From NCBI GenBank assembly GCA_041556275.1, contig JBFFIU010000001.1, positions 1 through 50,705 of the forward strand: a stretch of 50,705 nucleotides of DNA. The letters are read 5' to 3'. The first letter of the stretch is position 1; each line of letters starts with the position of its first letter. Positions 13,143-30,866 of this stretch are shown here, piece by piece. This DNA comes from Anaerolineales bacterium. GTDB lineage: Bacteria > Chloroflexota > Anaerolineae > Anaerolineales > UBA4823. The notes under the pieces were generated by a model, which saw nothing but the letters and a program-made list of their open reading frames with translations, did no database searches and was not told the DNA's origin. The translations under genes were made by a program, and so were the position numbers.

Positions 13143-13163
13143 CTCCCCTACTCCCCAGCTTCC
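13143..13163. repeat. Right arm of the inverted repeat flanking the four-helix-bundle gene
   Basis: See 12642-12662. It overlaps the last codons and the stop of the 670-aa upstream gene. Confidence 0.4.
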
Positions 13164-15160
13164 TGGCTCCCCTGCTCCCTGTCTCTCTGACCCCCTGGCT
13201 CCTCAGTTGCCTCGCTACCCATCAACTCCTTGATTCTGGCTTTAAGCTCGGAGCGACGTTTTTGGTATGCCTCCTGCGGTAACTTACCGGCCTTATACTG
13301 ATCATCCAGGGCAAGGATGGCATCAAAGAGCATATCCAAATCATCGCCATTCTCTCCAGCGGGATATTCACCATCAGCGTCGTATTCACGCTCTTCCGGT
13401 CTTTCTTTGCGTGAACGGGTATAGAGCCAGACACCAGCCACGATGAGGACGACGCCAAATGCCACCAGGCCAACCACGAGGCTCGAATTTGAACCAATGG
13501 CCAACCCTAATCCCCCTCGTGGGCGCCCAGAAATATCAATTGCCAGATCGGTTCCCGCCTCGAGTCGTCCGCTGGAATACAAATGGTAGGGGATTCCCTG
13601 CACATCGCGAGTGCCCATATCACGCAGCTGGTCACCACTGACTCTAAGCCCATCTTCCGGAAGCAAAACAACCACCGCATCAACTGGGACATCAAGAGGC
13701 CGGATGAAATCCAGCTTGCTTTTGTAGGGCACATCATAGGAATATACAACCTGGTGTTGACCCATTCCAGGTCGAATCACTGCCACATCTCCAAATCCAT
13801 TTTGGGTTTGAATGTATCGCTCTCCGACGACACCATCCTCGAATTGCAAGTTGGTGGCGCCCTGCGGTAAATTAAAGGACAACACGGGTTTTCCGTTTTC
13901 GGGAGCCACCACGATCTCATTTCCAGGATTAGAAATGATGTACATCTCGACCACTCTCAATATATCGGGCTCGAGATAACTAAATAAAAGGTGCAGGCGA
14001 TCGACGGATAATATGGAGGTGTCGGTGGTCGTTTCAAAGTAAGGGATCACCAGGGCCAGATTGGATGTGTTTTCATCAACCACGGAGATATCGGAGCTAT
14101 AGCCCATTTCTTGATAGTTTACAGTGGCGAGAAAAGTACGTCCCGGAGGCATCTCCACGTTTTCGAATATGAATTCTCCTTCGGGGCCTGCGTCAATCTC
14201 TGCGAAGAAAGTTTGCTGCATCTGATCGAATCCATGCAGTGACACTGTGAGGTTCGACGGGATATCACCTCCAGAGGCGCTGACCACTTGCCCCTCAACC
14301 ACTCCCATACCAGAGGCTTCTTCTGTCGCCAGAGGAGTACTAGGCGTTTGGGTATTTGATGACCCTGTTGGCGGCTCAGGAGTACCCTGGCTAGAGATAC
14401 CCGCAACTGGTGAAAGGAATGTTTGAGAACGCAAATAAGCAGTTAAAGCCCAACGCTCCTCTGGGGACAATTGCTCACCAAAGGCAGGCATCGTCGGTTC
14501 ATCTCCATCACTGATCACCTGAAAGAGCTGTTCATCTGTGATGTTAGCCATATATTCCTGATCGATGAGGTTTGATGGATTAGCGGAAAGATCCGCTGCT
14601 TCAGGTCCGTCCCCTATGCCACCCTCCCCATGACAAGGGGCACAGTTGATTTGATAAACCTCTTCACCCAGGGTTACTGTCTCAGGGTTATTGCTCAGGC
14701 TGAAAAGGTAAGCGGTCACATCCCAACGCTGCCGGTCAGTGAGACTATTAAATGGGGGCATCCGTCGTTCTATATTGCCATTAGTGATAATTGCATACCA
14801 ATCGGCTGGTGATGAAGAGCGAGCCAAATCTACAGTTCCTATTGCCGGCGGAGGAAAAGGCAATTCATCGGCCATTTCTCCATTTCCCAATCCATCGACA
14901 CCATGGCAGGGAGCGCATTTCTCGGCATAAATTTGCGCTCCAGCAGATGGGTCAGGATGAACCATCGGGTAAAGGGGCCCCTCAGGAAGGGGTTGTGAAG
15001 GTTCTATAACCGGCACTTCAGCACCAGGTGGAGGAGTGATATCCTCAGCTAAAGAAAATGAACATGCCGATAAGAACAAGAGGCCAGAAAAGGTGAGGAT
15101 CAGGGTATATACAGCAGAATTCCGAAAACAGATTTTGAGCAGAGCTCGGTTGTCATTCAT
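13148..15160 (-). CDS. Diheme cytochrome c lipoprotein with a large beta-rich periplasmic domain, a C-terminal TM helix and a CcmI-like cytoplasmic tail
   Basis: Lipobox FLSAC. Two class I heme motifs (CAPCHGVDGLGNG, CAPCHGEGGIGDG). TM helix LVVGLVAFGVVLIVAGVWLY. The tail LALDDQYKAGKLPQEAYQKRRSELKARIKEL resembles the CcmI N-terminal-domain motif. Confidence 0.7.
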   Translation of the reverse strand: MNDNRALLKICFRNSAVYTLILTFSGLLFLSACSFSLAEDITPPPGAEVPVIEPSQPLPEGPLYPMVHPDPSAGAQIYAEKCAPCHGVDGLGNGEMADELPFPPPAIGTVDLARSSSPADWYAIITNGNIERRMPPFNSLTDRQRWDVTAYLFSLSNNPETVTLGEEVYQINCAPCHGEGGIGDGPEAADLSANPSNLIDQEYMANITDEQLFQVISDGDEPTMPAFGEQLSPEERWALTAYLRSQTFLSPVAGISSQGTPEPPTGSSNTQTPSTPLATEEASGMGVVEGQVVSASGGDIPSNLTVSLHGFDQMQQTFFAEIDAGPEGEFIFENVEMPPGRTFLATVNYQEMGYSSDISVVDENTSNLALVIPYFETTTDTSILSVDRLHLLFSYLEPDILRVVEMYIISNPGNEIVVAPENGKPVLSFNLPQGATNLQFEDGVVGERYIQTQNGFGDVAVIRPGMGQHQVVYSYDVPYKSKLDFIRPLDVPVDAVVVLLPEDGLRVSGDQLRDMGTRDVQGIPYHLYSSGRLEAGTDLAIDISGRPRGGLGLAIGSNSSLVVGLVAFGVVLIVAGVWLYTRSRKERPEEREYDADGEYPAGENGDDLDMLFDAILALDDQYKAGKLPQEAYQKRRSELKARIKELMGSEATEEPGGQRDREQGSQEAGE

Positions 15161-15201: not shown

Positions 15202-15750
15202 CTAGACAAGGGGCTTACCACAACTGGGACAGAAACTATCCGAGGATTGGACCGGGCGACCACATTGGGGACAAAACCCAGCAGATTTATCCTGGCGAGA
15301 ACGCCGCCGGGCAGCCAGCTGGATTTCTACTTCGTCATCCGCCTGTATGGCTACCTGGGTTCCCCCAGCTGCACCAACACCAACAACTTGATTCGAAACT
15401 GCACGGCGTTCGGCAATTGCTGCCTCGACCCGTTCATCCAAATCGTTGTTTGGGGTGACCGCGCCATATTCATCCAATTGGCGCAAGACATCGGCTCCCC
15501 GTTGAAGCAGGAGACTTCGTTGAGCAGGATACTCATCCTCAGGGATCTTCCCCAAGGCATGATCAAAATCCAGCTCTTGTAGGGCGTTCAGCACGCGATC
15601 CTGTTCTGCCAGCAATGTGGACACCTCATGTTCCGTCTGGTCATCCTCATGAGCATTACCGGGAGCATCCCGATCAAAAAGTGGACGGGCGATGAATAAC
15701 CCAATCAAAATTAATAAGGCCAGCAAAAAAAGAATTGAGCCAATATCCAT
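15202..15750 (-). CDS. Membrane-anchored CcmI-N-terminal-like protein with a C-terminal zinc ribbon
   Basis: N-terminal TM helix, then LLAEQDRVLNALQELDFDHALGKIPEDEYPAQRSLLLQRGADVLRQL (CcmI-type L-x-EL-x-D-x3-G-x-I pattern). The C-terminus is FCPQCGRPVQSSDSFCPSCG. Confidence 0.5.
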   Translation of the reverse strand: MDIGSILFLLALLILIGLFIARPLFDRDAPGNAHEDDQTEHEVSTLLAEQDRVLNALQELDFDHALGKIPEDEYPAQRSLLLQRGADVLRQLDEYGAVTPNNDLDERVEAAIAERRAVSNQVVGVGAAGGTQVAIQADDEVEIQLAARRRSRQDKSAGFCPQCGRPVQSSDSFCPSCGKPLV

Positions 15751-22167: not shown

Positions 22168-23427
22168 ATGATGAAAACCTTGAAATTTGTTTTGATGATT
22201 GGCAGCTTGTTGATCATAATCGCTGCACTGGCAGCTTGCGGAGGGCAAGATGGTCCGCAAGGGCCTGCAGGTCCCGTTGGTCCACCTGGTCCAGATGGTC
22301 CGCATGGCCCTACCGGACCCGAAGGTCCGGTAGGGCCAGCTGGTGCTGAGGGGGAGACTGGCACTGGTGTGACAGGGGCTGAGTATGTAGGCAGCGCTAC
22401 ATGCGGCGGTTGCCACAAGGATACTTACGATACCTTTATTCAATCCGGTCACCCCTGGAAATTGAACCCTGTGATCGACGGACAGCCTCCAGATTACCCT
22501 TTTACAGGTTTACCTGAATTACCAGAGGGTTACACCTGGGATGATATTTCTTACGTGATTGGCGGATACAACTGGAAAGCCCGCTTCATTGACCAGGATG
22601 GCTACATCATCACAGACGAACCTGGCGCTTCAGGCAATGAAGAGTATCTCAACCAGTACAATTTCGCTAACCCGATCGTGGGCACCGAAGCCGGTTGGGT
22701 GACCTACCACTCAGGTGAATTAGAGAAGCCTTATGACTGCGGCGCATGCCATACGACCGGTTACAGCCCCAACGGCAACCAGGACGACCTGCCGGGCCTG
22801 GTCGGGACCTGGGCTGAACCTGGCATCATGTGCGAGGAATGCCACGGTCCGGGAGGCATGCACGTTAAAAACCCGCAGGGTGTTCAAATGACCATCGACC
22901 GAGATGCGGAGCAGTGCGGCAAATGCCATAGCCGCGAGGAGATCGAATCGGTCAATGCCAGCGGTGGCTTTATCCGTCACCACGAACAATATGAGGAGCT
23001 CTTCCAGGGTAAGCACATCGCCCTGGACTGCGTGATCTGCCACGATCCTCATCAAGGCGTCGTGCAGCTGCGCCAGGCAGGCATTCAGACCACGCGCACA
23101 CAGTGCGAGAACTGCCATCTTGATGAAGCGCAATTTCAGAACTCGCTAATCCATCCTGCTGCAACGGAGTGCATCGACTGCCACATGCCGCGCATCGTCC
23201 TGTCTGCGGTAGGTGACCCGGAGAAATTTACTGGCGACATCCGCACCCACCTGATGCGCATCAACCCCACCCAGATCGAGCAGTTTACCGAGGATGGCAG
23301 TGCCTCCCTTTCAGAGATCGGGCTGAATTTCGCCTGCCGGCACTGTCATGGCGTGACTGCCTCGGAAAAGAGTGACGAAGAATTGATCGAAAATGCAACT
23401 GATTACCACACGCCAACGGAGGAGTAA
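22168..23427 (+). CDS. Octaheme cytochrome c lipoprotein with an N-terminal collagen-like Gly-X-Y stalk
   Basis: Signal peptide and lipobox LAAC. 13 uninterrupted GXY triplets. 8 CXXCH motifs (CGGCH, CGACH, CEECH, CGKCH, CVICH, CENCH, CIDCH, CRHCH). Confidence 0.85.
22243..22359 (+). repeat. Collagen-like triplet repeat (13 x Gly-X-Y), coding
   Basis: [39 protein letters not shown]. Confidence 0.85.
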
Positions 23428-23536: not shown

Positions 23537-25246
23537 ATGAAAAGGTTCTGGCAAAGAATAAGGAATACTTTTAAGAATTTCTTCTTTCCTCCACCTGGTT
23601 CTCCTCGCTGGGCGCGAGTATTACCTTATGCTGTTCTGGGTATCTTAACTTTGATCGTGTTGACCGGGGCAGTTTTCGGCTGGGAATACACCAATTCCCC
23701 CCAATTCTGCGGCACAGCTTGCCACACCATGCCACCCGAATTCACAAGTTATCTGATCTCCCCCCATGCCCGCGTTGACTGCGTCGACTGCCATATCGGT
23801 AAGGGCTTTCTCGCCACGCGTGTCTCCCGCAAGGCTGGCGATCTCCGCCACATCGTCGCCACCACCTTCAACACCTACGAGTTTCCCATCCGGGCTCACC
23901 AGCTGCAGCCCGCCCGGGAGACCTGCGAGAAATGCCATTTCCCAGAGAAGTTCTCCGATGACAGTTTGCGTGAGATCAAGCAATTTAGTTCGGATAAAGA
24001 TAATACACCCCTGTCAACATTTTTAGTGCTCAAGACGGGCGGGGGCAGCAAACGCCAGGGGTTGGGGCGCGGCATCCACTGGCATATCGAGAATAAAATC
24101 GAGTACCTGCCCATCGATCCCGAAGAACAGGTGATCCCCTACGTGCTGGTGCATGAAGATGACGGCACGATCACGGAGTACGTGGACGTCGCATTTGATC
24201 TTGATCCCAACGATATCGATCCGGATGACCTGGTGGAGATGGACTGCATCACCTGCCACAACCGCATCACCCACCTGGTGAAGACACCAGAAGCGACGGT
24301 TGATGAGATGCTCAACCGCGGCATCATCGATCCGGAAATCCCCGATATCCGCCGCCAGGCGGTCGAAGCCTACAGCCAGATCTATGAAACCACTGAAATT
24401 GGCCTGGAAGGCATTGCCGGTATCGCCAGTTATTACCAGACATACTACCCTGAATATTACGCTGAAAACCAGGAAAAGGTCGCTGATGCCATCCTTGCCC
24501 TGCAGGATGCCTACGGCCAAAGCGTTTTCCCCGAGCAGAATTCCGACTGGACCACCCATCCCAATAACATTGGACATCAGGATTCTCCTGGATGCTTCCG
24601 CTGCCACGGCGGCACACATTTGAACGCCGAAGGGGAAGCTATTCGCCTGGAGTGCAACCTGTGCCACTCCATCCCGGTTGTCGCCGGTCCGGGTGATTTT
24701 GTATCCGAGATCGAGATCAGCCGCGGGCCGGAGCCCGACTCGCACAAGAATCCAAATTGGATCAGCATGCACCGGGATGTCTTTGACCCGACCTGCTCCA
24801 ACTGCCACACAATCGATAATCCTGGTGGGACGGACAATAGTTCCTTCTGCTCGAATACCGCCTGCCACGGCAGTGTCTATGAGTACGCCGGTTTCGATGC
24901 TCCAGGCCTGCGGGCGATATTGCGCGAACAACTTCCCCCTGAACCAACACCGATTCCACTGGCCGAGGGTGAAGCGATCACCTATCAAACCAGGATTGGT
25001 CCTATGTTCGAAAGCAAGTGCGGGGCATGTCACAGTGAGTCGAACAGCCTGGCAGGATTGGATCTGACAAACTATGAGGGCGCTTTGGAAGGCGGAGAGA
25101 GCGGCGCGGTGATACTCGCCGGTGACCCTGAAAACAGCCGATTGATCATCATTCAAAACAGTGACGAACCCCATTTCGCCCAACTCACAACTGAGGAATT
25201 GGACTTGGTCGTGGATTGGATCGCCAACGGAGCAGCGGAGAATTAA
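23537..25246 (+). CDS. Membrane-anchored NapC/NirT/NrfH-like multiheme cytochrome c (up to 9 hemes) with a C-terminal PSCyt1-like heme domain
   Basis: N-terminal TM helix (VLPYAVLGILTLIVLTGAVFGW). 7 CXXCH (CVDCH, CEKCH, CITCH, CFRCH, CNLCH, CSNCH, CGACH), plus CGTACH (CX3CH) and CSNTACH (CX4CH). Confidence 0.8.
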   Translation: MKRFWQRIRNTFKNFFFPPPGSPRWARVLPYAVLGILTLIVLTGAVFGWEYTNSPQFCGTACHTMPPEFTSYLISPHARVDCVDCHIGKGFLATRVSRKAGDLRHIVATTFNTYEFPIRAHQLQPARETCEKCHFPEKFSDDSLREIKQFSSDKDNTPLSTFLVLKTGGGSKRQGLGRGIHWHIENKIEYLPIDPEEQVIPYVLVHEDDGTITEYVDVAFDLDPNDIDPDDLVEMDCITCHNRITHLVKTPEATVDEMLNRGIIDPEIPDIRRQAVEAYSQIYETTEIGLEGIAGIASYYQTYYPEYYAENQEKVADAILALQDAYGQSVFPEQNSDWTTHPNNIGHQDSPGCFRCHGGTHLNAEGEAIRLECNLCHSIPVVAGPGDFVSEIEISRGPEPDSHKNPNWISMHRDVFDPTCSNCHTIDNPGGTDNSSFCSNTACHGSVYEYAGFDAPGLRAILREQLPPEPTPIPLAEGEAITYQTRIGPMFESKCGACHSESNSLAGLDLTNYEGALEGGESGAVILAGDPENSRLIIIQNSDEPHFAQLTTEELDLVVDWIANGAAEN

Positions 25247-25358: not shown

Positions 25359-25841
25359 ATGGAAGATAAAGAGCAGCTGAGCCGGCGGAATTTCTTAGCC
25401 ATCGCCACCGGAGCGATCGGGGGATTGATCGGCGTTGTCCTGGCGATTCCTGCAGTGGCTTACGTTGTCGGCCCCGCTTTACAGCGGACAAGAGCAGAGA
25501 ATTGGATCAGGCTCGGACCAACCTCGAAAGTCGAGCTCGGAACTCCCACTCTCTTCAAGGCCGTTGTTGAAAGCCAAACCGGGTGGATCCTGTCCGAGGA
25601 AGAACTCGCAGTTTATGTCCTCACAGAAGACGGGCGTGATTATATCGCTCTATCGAATATCTGCACTCACCTAGGCTGCCGGGTGCGTTGGATTACCGAT
25701 CAAGGTCAATACTTTTGCCCCTGCCACAACGCGGCCTTTGACAAAACTGGTCTGGTTGTATCTGGTCCTCCACCCGAACCTCTTGATCGCTATGAGACAA
25801 AGGTTGAGGATGATCAGTTGTATATCTTGTTGGGAGGTTGA
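25359..25841 (+). CDS. Rieske 2Fe-2S protein with a Tat signal
   Basis: RRNFLAIATGA, CTHLGCRV and CPCHNAAF boxes, AAGGAGG RBS. Confidence 0.9.
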   Translation: MEDKEQLSRRNFLAIATGAIGGLIGVVLAIPAVAYVVGPALQRTRAENWIRLGPTSKVELGTPTLFKAVVESQTGWILSEEELAVYVLTEDGRDYIALSNICTHLGCRVRWITDQGQYFCPCHNAAFDKTGLVVSGPPPEPLDRYETKVEDDQLYILLGG

Positions 25842-25842
25842 A

Positions 25843-26502
25843 ATGAGTGCGAGTTTGGGAAACTGGCTCGATGAACGCATCGGTTGGCGGAAGGTGTGGG
25901 ACGCCATATTCTTGCGTAAGATCCCCAAAGTAAATTGGTTCTATACCCTGGGCAGCGCCACGCTATTCATGGCCGCTTTACAGGGCATTACCGGGATCCT
26001 GCTGACGATCTACTATGTGCCCACACCAGATCACGCATACGACAGCGTGCAGTTTATCACCACCCAGGTGCCGGGCGGGTGGTTTGTGCGCGGCATCCAC
26101 CACTGGGGAGCCAGCGCGATGGTGCTGTTGACCGTCCTGCACATGGTACGTGTCATTATGTACGGTGCATACAAGTACCCCCGCGAGGTGACCTGGTTCA
26201 CCGGCGTGGGATTATTGCTCGTGGTGATGGGCTTTGGTTTCACCGGTTATCTCTTACCTTGGGACCAGAAAGCATATTGGGCAACTGTTGTCGGCACCCG
26301 CATCGCCGGAGTCGCGCCGCTGATCGGGGATCCGATCTTACGAATCATGCGCGGTGGTGAAGATTTATCAGCCGTCACCCTAGCGCGCTTCTTCGGCACC
26401 CATGTCTGGGTCCTGCCAACGATACTGCTGCTGCTGCTTGGGATCCACATGTACCTCGTCATCCGGCTTGGCATCAGCGCTGTTCCTCGCAGGGAGGATT
26501 AG
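25843..26502 (+). CDS. Cytochrome b, N-terminal (b6-like, 4-TM) subunit
   Basis: MSASLGNWLDERIGWRKVW..., WFYTLGSATLF, RGIHHWGASAMV..LH. The ATG at 25843 is 1 nt after the Rieske stop. The track start at 25738 overlaps the Rieske gene. Confidence 0.9.
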   Translation: MSASLGNWLDERIGWRKVWDAIFLRKIPKVNWFYTLGSATLFMAALQGITGILLTIYYVPTPDHAYDSVQFITTQVPGGWFVRGIHHWGASAMVLLTVLHMVRVIMYGAYKYPREVTWFTGVGLLLVVMGFGFTGYLLPWDQKAYWATVVGTRIAGVAPLIGDPILRIMRGGEDLSAVTLARFFGTHVWVLPTILLLLLGIHMYLVIRLGISAVPRRED

Positions 26503-26505
26503 GAT

Positions 26506-28623
26506 ATGGACGAAAAAGAGCGACAAGAATATCTGGAGCAGTATAAAAAAGAGAAGGAAAAGGGCGTTCCCTTTTTCCCGGACATCCTTTTCAAAGATGC
26601 GGTCATCTCCCTGGTGATCTTCATCATCCTGGTGGCTTTAGCCTATTTTATCGGCGCGCCGTTAGAACCACGGGCGGATCCAGCTGATACCACCTACACT
26701 CCCCGACCTGAATGGTACTTCTTGTTCCTATTCCAACTGCTGAAGTACTTCCCGGGAGCATTGGAAGTAGTTGGTGTTTTTATCATCCCGTCAGTAGCAG
26801 TCATCTTATTGATCGCCTTACCCCTGATCGACCGTTCTCCCAAGCGGCATTTCCTACGCAGGCCAGTGATCTTGGTAGCAACGATCCTGAGTGTTATTGG
26901 CGTTCTTTTTCTTACCATTCAATCGAATCGAGAGATACCCCCACCCCTGGAAATCGTCGGGGGCGACCAAACCGCCGTCTTGTATACAGAAAATTGTGCA
27001 CCCTGTCATGGCCCGTCGATGGCTGTCCCAGCAGGTGTCAATTTGCATGACATCATTGCTCAAGGCCAGCATGAGGACATGCCCGGCTGGAGCGGTGATC
27101 TCACTACGGATGAGATCGATGCCCTGGCAGGTTTTATTATCTCTCCAGCGGGAAGCCAGCTCTTCACCGACAATTGCAGCGAATGCCATGAGGTTACTGA
27201 GCTGGTTGCCAGCAACCCGCTCGTCTTGAGAGAATCCATCCAGCGCGGATTGGAATTTGAACCTCATGCGGAGCTGGAAATCCCCGATTGGAGCGAAACG
27301 ATCAGCCAGGAGAACCAGACCAAGCTGCTCAACTTCCTGGTGGCACCGGATGGTCAACGTCTCTTCGCCACCAACTGTGCCCCGTGTCATGGTCAGTCCG
27401 TTGCAGTAGCCGGGGGCGAGGAGCAGTTATTGGAGATCATCAGCCAGGGTGGATTGCACCTGGAAATGCCGCCCTGGAGGGACATGTTGAGCGATAGCGA
27501 TTTGGATCTCCTGGCCAGATATGTTACCGACCCCGCAAGTGTACCTGAAGGCGCGCAGACTTTTGAAAACAACTGTTCTGGCTGCCATGCGAATCGCATT
27601 CCCTCCGCTGGAGATGTTGAGACCGCCCGGCAGATCATCGCTGAAGGTGGCGGACACGAAACTATGCCCGTCTGGGGTGAGGTGCTCACTCCTGAGCAAC
27701 TGGACGCCTTAGTCACTTTCACTCTCGCTGCCGCAGAAGGCACCTCCGTGGAGATCGGTCAAGAAATCTACACGCAAAATTGTGTGCCTTGTCATGGCGA
27801 ATTCGGAGAAGGCGGCCCCAACCCCTCTCGCGCTGGAGATATCATCTTCCCTATCAGCACCGAGGAATACCTGAAAACAAGAGATGACTTCACCGTGCGC
27901 TCAATCATTGCTCAAGGTCAGCCGAATTTCGGCATGTCGCCTTTCGGCAGTAGCTTTGGTGGACCTTTGCAGGACGAAGAAATTGATGCCGTTGTAGCTT
28001 TCATCCGGTCCTGGGAAGCCAATCCGCCGGTGGAATTGCCTCCAGAAATCGTTGTTGCCGTGGAGGATACACTGGCACTGGACACGAAAGATATCTATGA
28101 CCAGCTGTGCTCACAATGCCATGGTTTAAATGGAGAAGGTGGTATTGGACCATCATTTATGGACTCCGAATTTCATGACAACATAACCGACAACCAACTT
28201 TTCGAAGCTATAAATGTTGGACATGAGGCAACCTCAATGATCGGTTGGGGTGATGTTCTAAGTGTTGATCAGATCCAGCAAATGGTCCTGCTTATTCGCC
28301 AATTTAGATCTTCACCGGTTGCAGGTCAACCAACAACTGCGGAAGTATCCTTTTCCGAAGATGTGATGCCTATCTTCGAGGCTGATTGTATTGCTTGCCA
28401 CGGAAATTTTGGGGGCTGGGATGCCAGCAGCTATACCAGTGTGTTAGGCACAGGTAACAACGCTCCAGTGGTCATACCCGGTGATCCAGAGAACAGTCTT
28501 CTCGCTCAAAAGATGACCGACACTCAATCTATTGGACAGATAATGCCTCCAGCCGGATTATTGCCTGATGATGAAGTACAAGTTGTCCTGGATTGGATCG
28601 CAGCAGGTGCACCTGATAATTAA
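26506..28623 (+). CDS. Cytochrome b subunit IV-like domain fused to seven c-type heme domains
   Basis: The N-terminus has PRPEWYFLFLFQLLKYFP (the subunit IV / cyt b C-terminal signature) and 3 TM helices. It is followed by CAPCH, CSECH, CAPCH, CSGCH, CVPCH, CSQCH and CIACH, each in a class-I-like context. Confidence 0.85.
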   Translation: MDEKERQEYLEQYKKEKEKGVPFFPDILFKDAVISLVIFIILVALAYFIGAPLEPRADPADTTYTPRPEWYFLFLFQLLKYFPGALEVVGVFIIPSVAVILLIALPLIDRSPKRHFLRRPVILVATILSVIGVLFLTIQSNREIPPPLEIVGGDQTAVLYTENCAPCHGPSMAVPAGVNLHDIIAQGQHEDMPGWSGDLTTDEIDALAGFIISPAGSQLFTDNCSECHEVTELVASNPLVLRESIQRGLEFEPHAELEIPDWSETISQENQTKLLNFLVAPDGQRLFATNCAPCHGQSVAVAGGEEQLLEIISQGGLHLEMPPWRDMLSDSDLDLLARYVTDPASVPEGAQTFENNCSGCHANRIPSAGDVETARQIIAEGGGHETMPVWGEVLTPEQLDALVTFTLAAAEGTSVEIGQEIYTQNCVPCHGEFGEGGPNPSRAGDIIFPISTEEYLKTRDDFTVRSIIAQGQPNFGMSPFGSSFGGPLQDEEIDAVVAFIRSWEANPPVELPPEIVVAVEDTLALDTKDIYDQLCSQCHGLNGEGGIGPSFMDSEFHDNITDNQLFEAINVGHEATSMIGWGDVLSVDQIQQMVLLIRQFRSSPVAGQPTTAEVSFSEDVMPIFEADCIACHGNFGGWDASSYTSVLGTGNNAPVVIPGDPENSLLAQKMTDTQSIGQIMPPAGLLPDDEVQVVLDWIAAGAPDN

Positions 28624-28707: not shown

Positions 28708-30213
28708 GTGGATTCAAAACGACGTTCTCGGTATTGGCCGATCAATGCCAATCTGCGCGCCAAGGTCACCCTTGGTGTGGTCGTGCCTTTGATCTTGATC
28801 CTTGGCATATTTACCGTAATCGAAGCCTCTCGTCACCGAGAGACCGAACTTTCCAACCTTTCTATACTTGCATCGCAATCCGGTATGGTGATCGAAAGTT
28901 CATTGCGAAACGCAATGTTGCAATCCGATTTCTCTGAAGTTCAAAGGATATTGGATGCGGTCGGTGATGCGGGGGAATTCCGTGTCGTATACTTAATGGA
29001 CAGCGATGGAAAAATAATCTTTGCACCGCATGGTGAGGGTGTTGGCGAGCGGTTAGACAACAAACACCCAACCTGCCAAGCGTGCCATAAGTTGCTGCCT
29101 GATGAGAGACCAAGCAGTGTCGTGGTGACAGATGATGATCAGCGCGTCTTTCGGAGCATGTATCCCATAAGAAATGCACCGGAATGCATGACCTGTCACG
29201 ATCCGGATAAACCGATTATCGGTTTGTTGCTCACCGATATCCCTATTACAAAGGTGGAATCAGCTTTAACAGCAGACTTACGCGAGAATCTGCTGTGGTG
29301 GGTCGGAACGATTTTAGCAACAGTTTTCGTTGTTAATGTTGCCATGAGCAACATTGTTATTAACCGCCTGCAAAAATTAGCCCAGGCTTTGGCGGGCTTT
29401 GGGCAAGACCAATTGAGTCTCCGGCTCCCCGCTGAAGAACCCGATGAAATCGGTCAGCTTTCAGAAGCCTTCAACAATATGAGCCAGCGCATTGAGGTTG
29501 AAGTGGCAGAAAACCGAGCCCTCTCCGATCACCTTTATCTGCAAAGCAAACAGCGTGGTGAACTGCTTAATCATTTGATCACAGCCCAGGAGGATGAGCG
29601 CAAACGTGTGGCTCGCGAACTCCACGATGATCTTGGCCAGGCGTTGGGGGCATTGGCCTTGCAAGCGGAAGCGACTGAAAAACTCATCACCTCCGATCCA
29701 GAACGTGCGATCTACCAATTGAACCTGATTCGAGAGCTGATCACCGAAACAACAGAACGGATGTATGAACTTATATTAGCATTGCGCCCCTCAACACTCG
29801 ACGATCTGGGCTTAGTCGTAGCTCTACAATCCCATGCTGATAGATTTCTATCCGGCAGCGGCATTGCCTTTGAATTAAATGCTGATGGCTTGTCCGATCG
29901 CCTCACGCCCGAATTGGAGACCGCCCTATACCGGATCTACCAGGAAGCCCTGAACAACGTCAGGCGACATTCCGGTGCGAACAGGGTATCCATCACCCTG
30001 ACAATGAACCACGGCTTTCTCGAAAGCGAGATACAGGATGATGGCCGCGGTTTTGATCCTCAGGTGTTAGACTCCAATGGAGACAGCCCGCATGGATTGG
30101 GATTATTGGGTATGAAGGAGCGCGTCAATCAGGCTTGCGGGAATATCGAGATCATCTCTCAACCAGGCATCGGCACACGCATCCATCTGCGTTTCCCAAT
30201 TAATGGAGGTTGA
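28708..30213 (+). CDS. Sensor histidine kinase (HAMP-HisKA_3-HATPase) with two CXXCH motifs in its periplasmic domain
   Basis: TM1 is at about residues 20-38 and TM2 at about 195-217. Between them are HPTCQACHK (nt 29074-29088) and APECMTCHD (nt 29185-29199). H-box RVARELHDDLGQ. GTG start. Confidence 0.8.
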   Translation: MDSKRRSRYWPINANLRAKVTLGVVVPLILILGIFTVIEASRHRETELSNLSILASQSGMVIESSLRNAMLQSDFSEVQRILDAVGDAGEFRVVYLMDSDGKIIFAPHGEGVGERLDNKHPTCQACHKLLPDERPSSVVVTDDDQRVFRSMYPIRNAPECMTCHDPDKPIIGLLLTDIPITKVESALTADLRENLLWWVGTILATVFVVNVAMSNIVINRLQKLAQALAGFGQDQLSLRLPAEEPDEIGQLSEAFNNMSQRIEVEVAENRALSDHLYLQSKQRGELLNHLITAQEDERKRVARELHDDLGQALGALALQAEATEKLITSDPERAIYQLNLIRELITETTERMYELILALRPSTLDDLGLVVALQSHADRFLSGSGIAFELNADGLSDRLTPELETALYRIYQEALNNVRRHSGANRVSITLTMNHGFLESEIQDDGRGFDPQVLDSNGDSPHGLGLLGMKERVNQACGNIEIISQPGIGTRIHLRFPINGG

Positions 30214-30866
30214 TCCTGGCTGATCCAATTCGCGTCCTCATCGCCGATGATCATACAATTGTTCGTTCAGGCGTTCGCCTGCTGCTGGAAGCCGAAGCTG
30301 ATATTGAGGTAGTTGGTGAGGCACTTGATGGTCGCGAGGCATTAAAACTGGCAAAATCACTCCAACCGGATGTAGTATTAATGGATATCACCATGCCAGT
30401 GATGGATGGGCTGGAGGCAACCAAACAGCTCAAAACGCGCTTCCCGCATATCAATGTCCTGGTTTTGACCATGCACCGATCAGACGAATATTTCTTCGAA
30501 ATGCTCAAAGCAGGAGCCTCCGGATACATCCTTAAAGGCGCCAAGACAAACGAACTTATCAATGCAGTCCGGGTTGTCCATCAAGGGGAGGTATTTCTTT
30601 ATCCCACGATGACTCAAAAACTGGTCCAAGGTTATCTTCAGTTAGCAGATTGGGAGAATGAGAGTGAACCTTCTCTGAGCCCGCGAGAAAAGGAGATCTT
30701 TCGATTGTTGGCAGAGGGTTACAGTAATAAAGAGATCGCCGAAAAGCTGGTCATTAGCCCCAGCACTGTTCACTCTCATCGTGGCAATTTAATGGACAAG
30801 CTTGGGCTGAGCAATCGCCGTGAATTAATTCAATACGCTAGGAAGCGTGGTTTGATCCAGAATTAG
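30210..30866 (+). CDS. NarL/LuxR-family response regulator
   Basis: IRVLIADDHTIVRSG, DVVLMDITMPVMDG, LuxR HTH (LSPREKEIFRLLAEGYSNKEIAEKLVISPSTV). The TTG start overlaps the kinase stop (TTGA). Confidence 0.9.
   Translation: MILADPIRVLIADDHTIVRSGVRLLLEAEADIEVVGEALDGREALKLAKSLQPDVVLMDITMPVMDGLEATKQLKTRFPHINVLVLTMHRSDEYFFEMLKAGASGYILKGAKTNELINAVRVVHQGEVFLYPTMTQKLVQGYLQLADWENESEPSLSPREKEIFRLLAEGYSNKEIAEKLVISPSTVHSHRGNLMDKLGLSNRRELIQYARKRGLIQN

Follow-up and report, generated by a model that had tools for sequence, protein, structure and literature searches.

What would a Rieske/cytochrome b complex do with seven c-type haems on one of its membrane subunits? The question is raised by a gene, here called SUIV7, that lies in the first 50,705 nucleotides of contig JBFFIU010000001.1 (assembly GCA_041556275.1) of an Anaerolineales bacterium; this whole stretch is referred to below as the window. 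SUIV7 encodes a subunit IV of cytochrome b joined to seven haem-attachment motifs, and it belongs to a conserved family that is confined to part of the Anaerolineae. Probably, the fusion equips the complex with an electron exit of its own, leading to cytochromes beyond the membrane. On balance, we think that SUIV7 is the cytochrome c subunit of a b6-type, menaquinol-oxidising Q-cycle complex, and that it passes electrons to tethered multihaem partners, with the likely point of entry being the fifth haem domain, D5.

The gene and its seven haem domains

The open reading frame (ORF) runs from the ATG at 26506 to the TAA at 28623 and encodes 705 amino acids (aa). The ATG is preceded by the ribosome-binding site AGGGAGGA, and is 4 nucleotides (nt) past the stop of the cytochrome b6 gene. 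An earlier reading of the DNA from its letters alone (the original prediction) had proposed subunit IV fused to seven CXXCH motifs at this position, and translation, Pfam, hydropathy and the motif count all agree with it. The seven motifs begin at residues 164, 224, 291, 357, 426, 535 and 628. The spacings between them (60, 67, 66, 69, 109 and 93 residues) are slightly tighter than the 70-110 first given, being 60-109. All 14 cysteines of the protein are within these motifs, and its composition predicts 0.006 motifs by chance. The gene and its modules are as follows.

26506..28623 (+), SUIV7 gene: subunit IV plus seven c-type haem domains (ORF, CXXCH count, Pfam PF00032/PF13442/PF07635, conservation)
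26506..26952 (+), subunit IV module, residues 1-149 (hydropathy, PF00032, alignment to cytochrome b/PetD chains)
26953..27741 (+), D1-D4 cassette, residues 150-412, CXXCH at 164/224/291/357 (internal alignment, local scores, fixed length)
27742..28050 (+), D5, residues 413-515, CXXCH at 426, M477 (conservation, homology to the first domain of di- and trihaem relatives)
28051..28335 (+), D6, residues 516-610, CXXCH at 535, M578 (PF13442, 35.2 bits)
28336..28620 (+), D7, residues 611-705, terminal domain of PSCyt1 type, CXXCH at 628, M680 (PF07635, 28.2 bits)

The subunit IV signature and the three transmembrane (TM) helices expected in the N-terminal part are both present. Hydropathy places the helices at residues 32-50 (TM1), 88-106 (TM2) and 120-138 (TM3), and the sequence PEWY occupies residues 68-71, at the start of PEWYFLFLFQLLK (residues 68-80). 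Pfam Cytochrom_B_C (PF00032) matches residues 57-152 with an E-value of 1.8e-11 (44.6 bits, against a cut-off of 20.7). In alignments with solved structures, residues 20-153 correspond to the C-terminal third of cytochromes b, mitochondrial and bacterial alike, and to the subunit IV chains of b6f. Among the NCBIfam models, the only one for subunit IV to match is TIGR01156, at 31.9 bits against a cut-off of 127; the ExtQ model matches this region weakly and below its cut-off, no Bacillus QcrC model is among the NCBIfam matches, and SUIV7 reaches no NCBIfam equivalog cut-off. The module is well conserved, with a mean identity of 76% and no variation in length across 59 homologs. It is followed by a proline-rich linker (141-155), in which Pro145 and Pro147 are invariant, and which runs on into the D1 part of the protein. 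From the three-helix topology, and by analogy with the outside position of the PEWY loop in b6f and bc1 structures, the haem domains would sit on the outer side of the membrane.

The haem domains were scanned singly against Pfam hidden Markov models (HMMs), and prove to be of more than one kind. D1, D3, D4, D5 and D6 match the full length of the class I cytochrome c model PF13442 at 35-44 bits, above its gathering score of 27 bits. D7 instead passes the PSCyt1 model PF07635 (28.2 bits, cut-off 22), and D2 fits only the haem-attachment half of PF13442 (model positions 5-31, 17.9 bits, which is below 27). The class-I-like context originally claimed for every motif is found for D1 and D3-D6, with only a half match for D2 and the PSCyt1 match for D7; NCAPCHG, the example then quoted, occurs at D1 and D3. 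D1 to D4 are short class I domains of ~60-67 aa each, closer to one another than to the other SUIV7 domains (local scores 61-123). D1, D3 and D4 share the motif HxxMPxW, which holds M192, M321 and M387. The counterpart in D2 reads H254-AELE-I-P-D-W, with isoleucine at the methionine position and a two-residue insertion.

All 14 cysteines and the seven motif histidines are invariant in the family alignment, as are the candidate sixth ligands M192, H254, M321, M387, M477, M578 and M680 (59 to 115 family members aligned). M192, H254, M321, M387 and M477 are also invariant in an alignment of D1-D5 from 80 species, and His254 is retained even in more distant six- and eight-haem forms. The original prediction had put its doubt in motifs that lack a distal ligand; every domain has an invariant candidate. 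It is a methionine in six of them, and D2 differs in kind, having lost the methionine and kept only His254. The haem of D2 is probably not His/Met ligated, to judge from these residues, and may be bis-His or have an open sixth position.

Conservation and linker length divide the protein in two. D5 is the best conserved of the haem domains (mean identity 79%), followed by D1 (77%), and from subunit IV to the end of D5 the length varies by at most one residue, even though this includes linkers of 5-9 aa (59 homologs). The D1-D5 region contains the conserved sequence FLVAPDGQR, and its alignment over 80 species has 369 columns for 366 residues, that is, three extra. The linker between D5 and D6 is proline-rich and of 21-26 aa, and that between D6 and D7 ranges from 12 to 43 aa with 34% identity (59 homologs). 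The AlphaFold2 model of the full-length protein is poor, with a mean predicted local distance difference test score (pLDDT) of 66.7 and a predicted TM-score (pTM) of 0.35, and its pLDDT falls below 50 exactly at the TM3-D1, D5-D6 and D6-D7 linkers (residues 514-523 and 603-611 among them). For D1-D5 alone, pLDDT is 80.4 and pTM 0.61, no segment falls below 50, and the last helix of D4 passes straight into the first helix of D5. D1 to D5 are thus predicted to form one fixed, rigid five-domain body, with D6 and D7 tethered to it on variable linkers.

A Foldseek search of the PDB gave no solved structure resembling the whole of SUIV7 or D1-D5 at E <= 1e-3, the best query-normalised TM-scores being 0.13 for the whole protein and 0.24 for the five-domain core. 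Single domains match class I cytochromes of the c6, c552, cL and ActE types, and pairs of domains match dihaem QcrC or CcoP. Wire cytochromes of the c3/c7, NrfH and MtrC types were taken to have one CXXCH per ~20-40 residues, bis-His ligation and an HMM score above cut-off. The matches of SUIV7 to Cytochrome_C7, Paired_CXXCH and MtrC domains are all below cut-off, with no qualifying stretch. A classical c3/c7-type multihaem wire is ruled out by these scores and by the haem spacing, which is one per 60-109 residues.

A modular series and the origin of the heptahaem form

A word-indexed protein search listed 120 clusters (90% identity) that are 54-89% identical to SUIV7. Its full length is covered in all of these except two partial ones (P0066 and P0067). 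Exactly seven motifs at the same positions are found in 118 of these 120 nearest clusters, the other two having eight and ten. In their source records, the listed clusters go by no more specific a name than 'c-type cytochrome' or 'mono/diheme cytochrome c family protein'.

The survey of QcrC-like fusions suggested at the outset, with a count of CXXCH motifs, was carried out, and each haem domain of the related fusions was aligned locally against D1-D7. The result is a modular series with two to ten haems.

Dihaem form (C180 paralog of the source genome, P0142, P0144, P0150): subunit IV, D5-like, D7-like
Trihaem form (P0138): subunit IV, D5, D6, D7
Hexahaem form (P0136, P0128): subunit IV, D1-D4, D5, D7
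Heptahaem form (SUIV7): subunit IV, D1-D4, D5, D6, D7
Eight-haem form (P0130): the heptahaem layout with an extra class I domain before D7
Eight- and ten-haem forms (P0081, P0065): two and four copies of PSCyt1, with linkers rich in Gly, Ser, Thr and Pro between them

SUIV7 had been described as a large expansion. It is better seen as one state of a 2-, 3-, 6-, 7-, 8- and 10-haem Chloroflexota series that is widespread in metagenomes. D5 scores 189-358 against the first haem domain of the C180 paralog, P0142, P0144, P0150 and P0138, and the D1-D4 cassette is absent from the di- and trihaem relatives. The D5-like CXXCH of those proteins is at about residue 171, and that of D1 in SUIV7 at residue 164, so that both stand equally far from TM3. 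When a tree is built from the subunit IV part, the heptahaem proteins form a clade that branches from among the dihaem fusions. The added haems of the eight- and ten-haem forms are confined to the distal part of the protein. Since D5 is homologous to the domain that comes first in the di- and trihaem forms, and the heptahaem clade lies within a group of dihaem fusions, the D1-D4 cassette is best read as an insertion. The alignments indicate that the heptahaem innovation is a four-domain cassette of ~260 residues placed between TM3 and the ancestral membrane-proximal domain, with D6 in addition.

Some shorter relatives with one to six motifs at identical positions (P0121, P0123, P0124, P0129 and P0131) were considered as natural intermediates and for the most part rejected. 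They look like truncated or frameshifted heptahaem genes, because they show a mid-domain stop or loss of alignment and come from short contigs. P0128 and P0136, with six haems and no D6, and P0138, with three haems, are complete in the alignment.

It is worth adding that the wider search returned other haem-rich proteins. P0201 is a subunit IV with seven CXXCH at a different spacing; P0195 and P0173 have four CXXCH, in proteins labelled Anaerolineae or Chloroflexota. In the representative search, P0224 (680 aa) is a long, unsplit cytochrome b with six C-terminal CXXCH, and P0233 (810 aa) is another with 17 C-terminal CXXCH in closely spaced pairs. Going by its motif pattern, P0233 joins cytochrome b to a c3/c7-like wire, which is not the solution found in the class I array of SUIV7. 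Haem-rich extensions have arisen elsewhere too, as these five proteins illustrate.

The anatomy bears on where electrons would enter the array. In the reading that we favour, D5 is the most likely entry point for electrons from the Rieske cluster, because its homolog is the only membrane-proximal domain that the simpler relatives have, and because no other haem domain is better conserved. A strict in-line wire would instead have D1 in the c1/f-like place by the Rieske head, with a seven-step chain from D1 to D7 reaching up to ~15-20 nm from the membrane. D1 does lie only ~25 residues past TM3, with its CXXCH close to the position found for the first domain of the dihaem form; it is second in conservation, and the two invariant prolines lie in the linker that leads to it. 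We nevertheless consider this arrangement rather unlikely, since the Rieske-proximal domain found in the di- and trihaem relatives has its homolog in D5 and not in D1, and the simpler evolutionary route is one in which the D5 interface was kept and the inserted cassette looped out. The compact D1-D5 unit predicted by AlphaFold2 could be a rod or a horseshoe alike. The heme wire of the original prediction, in its simple linear form starting from D1, does not agree with an anatomy in which D5 looks ancestral, D1-D4 look inserted and D6 and D7 hang on variable, poorly conserved linkers. Nor are its haems of the wire type, the domains being class I, single-haem units with one haem per 60-100 residues, unlike the packed bis-His wire cytochromes.

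The position of the cassette, inserted beside a D5-(D6)-D7 path that was already complete, would also fit a quite different role, in which D1-D4 would be a dead-end side arm without a partner of its own, storing up to four electrons to buffer Qo. The Met-less D2, with its invariant His254, would differ in potential from its neighbours, which would be useful for staged storage. We think such a reservoir very improbable: the linkers and many surface positions of the cassette are strictly conserved over 80 species, suggesting a defined geometry and perhaps interfaces, and four haems are few beside the dozens in the neighbouring cytochromes.

The operon, its neighbours and the proposed path of electrons

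SUIV7 is the last gene of a translationally coupled set, following a Tat-exported Rieske protein and cytochrome b6 with overlapping or 4-nt junctions. The genes around it in the window are these.

22168..23427 (+), first gene of the cluster: octahaem lipoprotein, part of it a Gly-X-Y stretch like that of collagen (Pfam c7/c3/MtrC-like and Collagen, eight CXXCH)
23537..25246 (+), membrane-anchored cytochrome, NrfH/NapC-like: nine haem motifs, PSCyt1 tail (Pfam and NCBIfam NrfH, PSCyt1)
25359..25841 (+), Tat-exported Rieske iron-sulfur protein, 160 aa (PF00355, Tat-signal family, boxes CTHLGC and CPCHNAAF)
25843..26502 (+), cytochrome b6, 219 aa, four helices (PF00033, E 9.5e-50)
28708..30866 (+), next genes downstream: HisKA_3 histidine kinase and a response regulator of LuxR type (Pfam)

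The true start of cytochrome b6 is the ATG at 25843, with GGAGG ahead of it, and the Rieske stop overlaps its ribosome-binding site and start. The haem ligands of b6 are H86/H100 (H-x13-H) and H187/H202 (H-x14-H). A haem ci was considered and ruled out, there being no CxGG; the corresponding position reads YTLGS. In NCBIfam this protein scores 225 bits with the cytochrome b6 model and 213 bits with ExtP, both under the cut-off. The window also encodes Ccm system I and an operon resembling alternative complex III (ACIII).

In bc1 and b6f complexes, the potential of the Rieske cluster is raised by a serine and a tyrosine in box II. The Rieske box II here, CPCHNAAF, has neither, and for this reason the sequence points to a low-potential, menaquinol-type chain. 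The potential classes are those used by Kao and Hunte (PMC4122944).

In the scheme that we favour, the N-terminal helices of SUIV7 and cytochrome b6 would together build the Qo site, with the PEWY loop, and past TM3 the chain would come out on the outer, positive face of the membrane; there the seven haems would be attached by the Ccm system, whose genes are in the window. Menaquinol would be oxidised at Qo, one electron passing through the b haems to Qi, so that energy is conserved in a Q cycle, and the second to the low-potential Rieske cluster and then to the haem array. D1-D4 would be a rigid four-haem cassette that forms a fixed body with D5. D6 and D7 would be mobile heads on flexible linkers, which reduce partners outside the membrane; these would be the NrfH-like nonahaem cytochrome and the stalked or lipid-anchored multihaem cytochromes encoded nearby. 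The octahaem collagen-like lipoprotein is likely to be one such downstream partner.

The low-potential type of the Rieske box bears also on the direction of flow. The array could in principle run in reverse, taking electrons from Fe(II), a cathode or a reduced cytochrome and passing them via the Rieske protein into menaquinone at the expense of proton-motive force, as in the uphill bc1 complex of the petI operon of Acidithiobacillus ferrooxidans. Six of the seven haems have a His/Met signature, which usually means a high potential and would suit donors at the Fe(II) level, and the four separate Rieske/cytochrome b loci of the source genome leave room for a specialised direction. Ardenticatena, a cultured relative within the Chloroflexota, gives both cathodic and anodic current (PMC5808234). 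We judge reverse operation to be improbable all the same: the recurrent neighbours include neither a Cyc2-like protein nor a known iron oxidase of another kind, and the box type fits ordinary menaquinol oxidation.

The neighbourhood is a conserved one. In a scan with one genome per species, a relative of SUIV7 was found in 169 species, and loci were analysed for the best 80. All of these best 80 are metagenome-assembled genomes of Chloroflexota (Anaerolineae), including Anaerolineales, Thermoflexales, Promineifilaceae, Bellilinea and Ca. Desulfolinea. The order Rieske, b6, SUIV7 is kept in essentially all of the best-80 loci with enough flanking sequence, and most of them have the NrfH-like nonahaem gene next to the complex, as a rule on its upstream side and in two cases downstream. 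The octahaem collagen-like lipoprotein is present only in the nearest relatives among these 80 loci. When the window is counted as well (81 loci), the kinase/LuxR-type regulator pair adjoins the operon in about 47-49, a ten-haem lipoprotein of ~730 aa occurs in 33, usually just after SUIV7, and collagen-stalked six-haem lipoproteins occur in 21. Sets of NrfD, FeS and eight-haem proteins also recur. SUIV7 neighbourhoods are in general consistently rich in lipoproteins with six to ten haems.

Several further features of these loci may be recorded here. The ~730-aa lipoprotein with ten CXXCH has an internal two-fold repeat of c7/c3 type; it lies directly downstream of SUIV7 in L016-L020, L023, L056, L073, L077 and L079 among other loci, and is not found in the window, where the collagen-stalked octahaem protein sits upstream. 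The kinases beside the operon (28708-30213 (+) in the window, with its homologs) form one cluster with a median of two CXXCH per protein, which fits a sensor domain that contains haem c. Within the ccm cluster of the window, 13148-15160 (-) encodes a 670-aa protein that is anchored at its N-terminus, contains two class I haem domains (each with CAPCH) and a large domain without a Pfam match, and ends in a TM helix with a charged tail. At 15202-15750 (-), in the same ccm region, there is a 182-aa zinc-ribbon protein; small membrane proteins with a terminal zinc-ribbon recur near cytochrome clusters in 18 loci (including L007, L016-L018, L023 and L029).

The source genome has four Rieske/cytochrome b loci, namely that in the window and others on contigs C180, C10 and C194. 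The C180 locus, a dihaem subunit IV fusion adjoining the succinate dehydrogenase (sdh) genes, looks like a housekeeping complex. The C10/C194 loci include a separate 136-aa subunit IV with the Rieske gene last, and a long cytochrome b of 530 aa with two dihaem cytochromes after it. C431 carries a further, unlinked Rieske gene, 66% identical to that of the window.

The same genome encodes one haem-copper oxidase and an NrfA (contigs C9 and C302), and this raises the possibility that the haem domains replace a soluble cytochrome c, docking on the oxidase, on NrfA or on the neighbouring ACIII-type complex, much as the dihaem QcrC works in the bcc-aa3 supercomplexes of actinobacteria. D5-D6 aligns, weakly, with CcoP and with the dihaem QcrC of mycobacterial and corynebacterial supercomplexes. 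Chloroflexota are regarded as monoderm (PMC5808234, PMC7399161), so that there would be no periplasm to hold a soluble carrier. Such a bridge to a terminal enzyme seems unlikely to us. The oxidase and NrfA are unlinked to the operon and are not among the recurrent neighbours of the 80 loci, these being multihaem cytochromes; the dihaem paralog beside sdh looks like the housekeeping complex, and two haems suffice for such bridging in actinobacteria.

The source genome contains four PSCyt1 domains, and every one of them forms the C-terminal tail of a redox protein in the membrane. The four proteins are SUIV7, the C180 dihaem subunit IV, the NrfH-like nonahaem cytochrome and a cytochrome b561-type (Ni_hydr_CYTB) protein on C19. 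The last of these is preceded by a nine-haem NapC-like gene, the pair lying at C19:1630-4033 (+). The b561-PSCyt1 gene is on a different contig from the window in the source genome, but adjoins the Rieske/b6 operon in 35 of the 81 loci; the NapC-like/b561-PSCyt1 pair is upstream of the operon in L007, L023, L032, L034, L052, L073 and L079. A broader proposal, which as a whole we regard as speculative and rather doubtful, is that monoderm Anaerolineae possess a plug-and-socket respiratory system. Unrelated quinol oxidoreductases would share a tethered PSCyt1 head and feed common stalked or lipid-anchored multihaem cytochromes, the SUIV7 complex would be the energy-conserving (Q-cycle) entry to extracellular electron transfer, and D2, with its Met-less haem inside the rigid D1-D5 body, would serve as a step in potential or as a gate that responds to ligands.

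A number of points weigh against the scheme of a Q-cycle complex that feeds multihaem partners through D5. Class I domains expose a single haem edge and as a rule form pairs, not chains; long-range transfer across five to seven of them is hypothetical. The spacing of D1 from TM3 is that of the ancestral D5-like domain, and on this evidence the Rieske cluster could just as well pass its electron to D1. Haems with His/Met ligation mostly have potentials too high for the reduction of ferric oxides, and the haem-copper oxidase and NrfA of the source genome could be the real electron sinks. Finally, of 401 genomes sampled evenly across the class, no more than 9 match at E <= 1e-60. Because so few genomes carry the gene, the SUIV7 complex is an accessory respiratory branch and not a core one. 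The nine matches fall in four families, one of which has an eight-haem form of 820-830 aa.

Comparison with known systems

Life's main energy-conserving quinol oxidases are the Rieske/cytochrome b complexes, whose c-type third subunit has been repeatedly replaced in evolution. The solution of the SUIV7 family is extreme and well conserved: here the membrane subunit bears what is predicted to be a fixed five-haem body and two tethered heads. If electrons do pass to extracytoplasmic multihaem cytochromes, a proton-motive Q cycle would be coupled to extracellular or surface acceptors in single-membrane bacteria, and this would bear on the respiration of the abundant Anaerolineae of sediment, soil and wastewater. 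To our knowledge, the known quinol dehydrogenases of extracellular electron transfer (CymA and the NrfH type) conserve no energy. The natural series of 2, 3, 6, 7, 8 and 10 haems offers a way to probe how far class I cytochrome domains can be chained, and the soluble 550-aa fragment with seven predicted haems is a defined structural target, in a family that is abundant in databases and unstudied.

In Geobacter, the GSU2930-2937 cluster (ExtO/P/Q-type) likewise has a Rieske/cytochrome b core amid multihaem cytochrome genes. It contains cytochromes with 2, 10, 12 and 5 haems and has been proposed to be a quinol oxidase for extracellular electron transfer (PMC2825233). The cytochromes there are separate proteins of c3/c7 type in a diderm host, with no subunit IV fusion and no class I array. 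The anammox bacterium Kuenenia (kuste4569-4574 and kustd1480-1485) combines b6 and a subunit-IV-like protein with hexa- and octahaem cytochromes c that replace cytochrome f (PMC12954380). It differs in its separate multihaem subunits, its five-helix subunit IV, its NAD(P) oxidoreductase and its HAO-like enzyme, none of which was found with SUIV7. For ARMA_580 of Ardenticatena, with seven haems, a signal peptide and a reported greatest similarity to a hypothetical protein of Desulfosporosinus, no link with a bc complex is described; it is set beside SUIV7 by its description only (PMC5808234).

The dihaem QcrC of the actinobacterial bcc complex (PDB 6hwh, 6adq, 7rh5, 7q21) is alike in having two tandem class I domains, and in relaying electrons from the Rieske protein to the acceptor without a soluble carrier. 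D5-D6 aligns with both of its domains, weakly (E about 1e-5 to 1e-3), and the model NF050122 (bc1_QcrC_actin) matches SUIV7 in two stretches of D5-D6 at 80.8 bits, against a cut-off of 200. Open and closed positions of the cytochrome c domain are known there, from the titles of the PDB entries. The actinobacterial protein is a separate anchored polypeptide that is not fused to subunit IV, and has two haems and not seven.

Kao and Hunte (2014) described 'PEWY-cyt c / PDWY-cyt c' clades, in which cytochrome b is fused to class I cytochrome c, and a fusion of cytochrome b to a trihaem c7 in Ignavibacterium (PMC4122944). SUIV7 resembles these in joining cytochrome b, or its C-terminal part, to c-type haems, and in that they occur in diverse phyla with several Rieske/b complexes per genome. 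Neither an array with six to ten haems nor a split form of subunit IV from Chloroflexota is mentioned in that paper as consulted, nor is a PSCyt1 tail; Dibrova et al. 2017 (PMC5600118) mention neither Chloroflexi nor multihaem fusions. In the literature searched, no description was found of the six-to-ten-haem subunit IV family, the D1-D4 cassette or the shared PSCyt1 tail.

The closest precedent is that named in the original prediction, QcrC of the Bacillus QcrABC (b6c) complex. Both have a three-helix subunit IV with a Qo loop of PEWY type, fused to a c-type cytochrome on the outer face; in both, the gene order is Rieske, b6, fusion, and the chain is of menaquinol type. The dihaem relatives of SUIV7 already carry the JGI name 'menaquinol-cytochrome c reductase cytochrome b/c subunit'. 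The differences are that Bacillus QcrC has one haem domain and SUIV7 seven, that these are of three kinds (the short D1-D4 repeat, D5/D6 and PSCyt1), and that the b6 partner of SUIV7 is without a CxGG haem-ci site, whereas Bacillus QcrB binds haem ci through one (PMC4122944). The fusion of subunit IV to cytochrome c is therefore a known design, that of QcrC; the heptahaem form, the D1-D4 cassette and the modular series to which they belong appear to be new as far as the literature searched goes.

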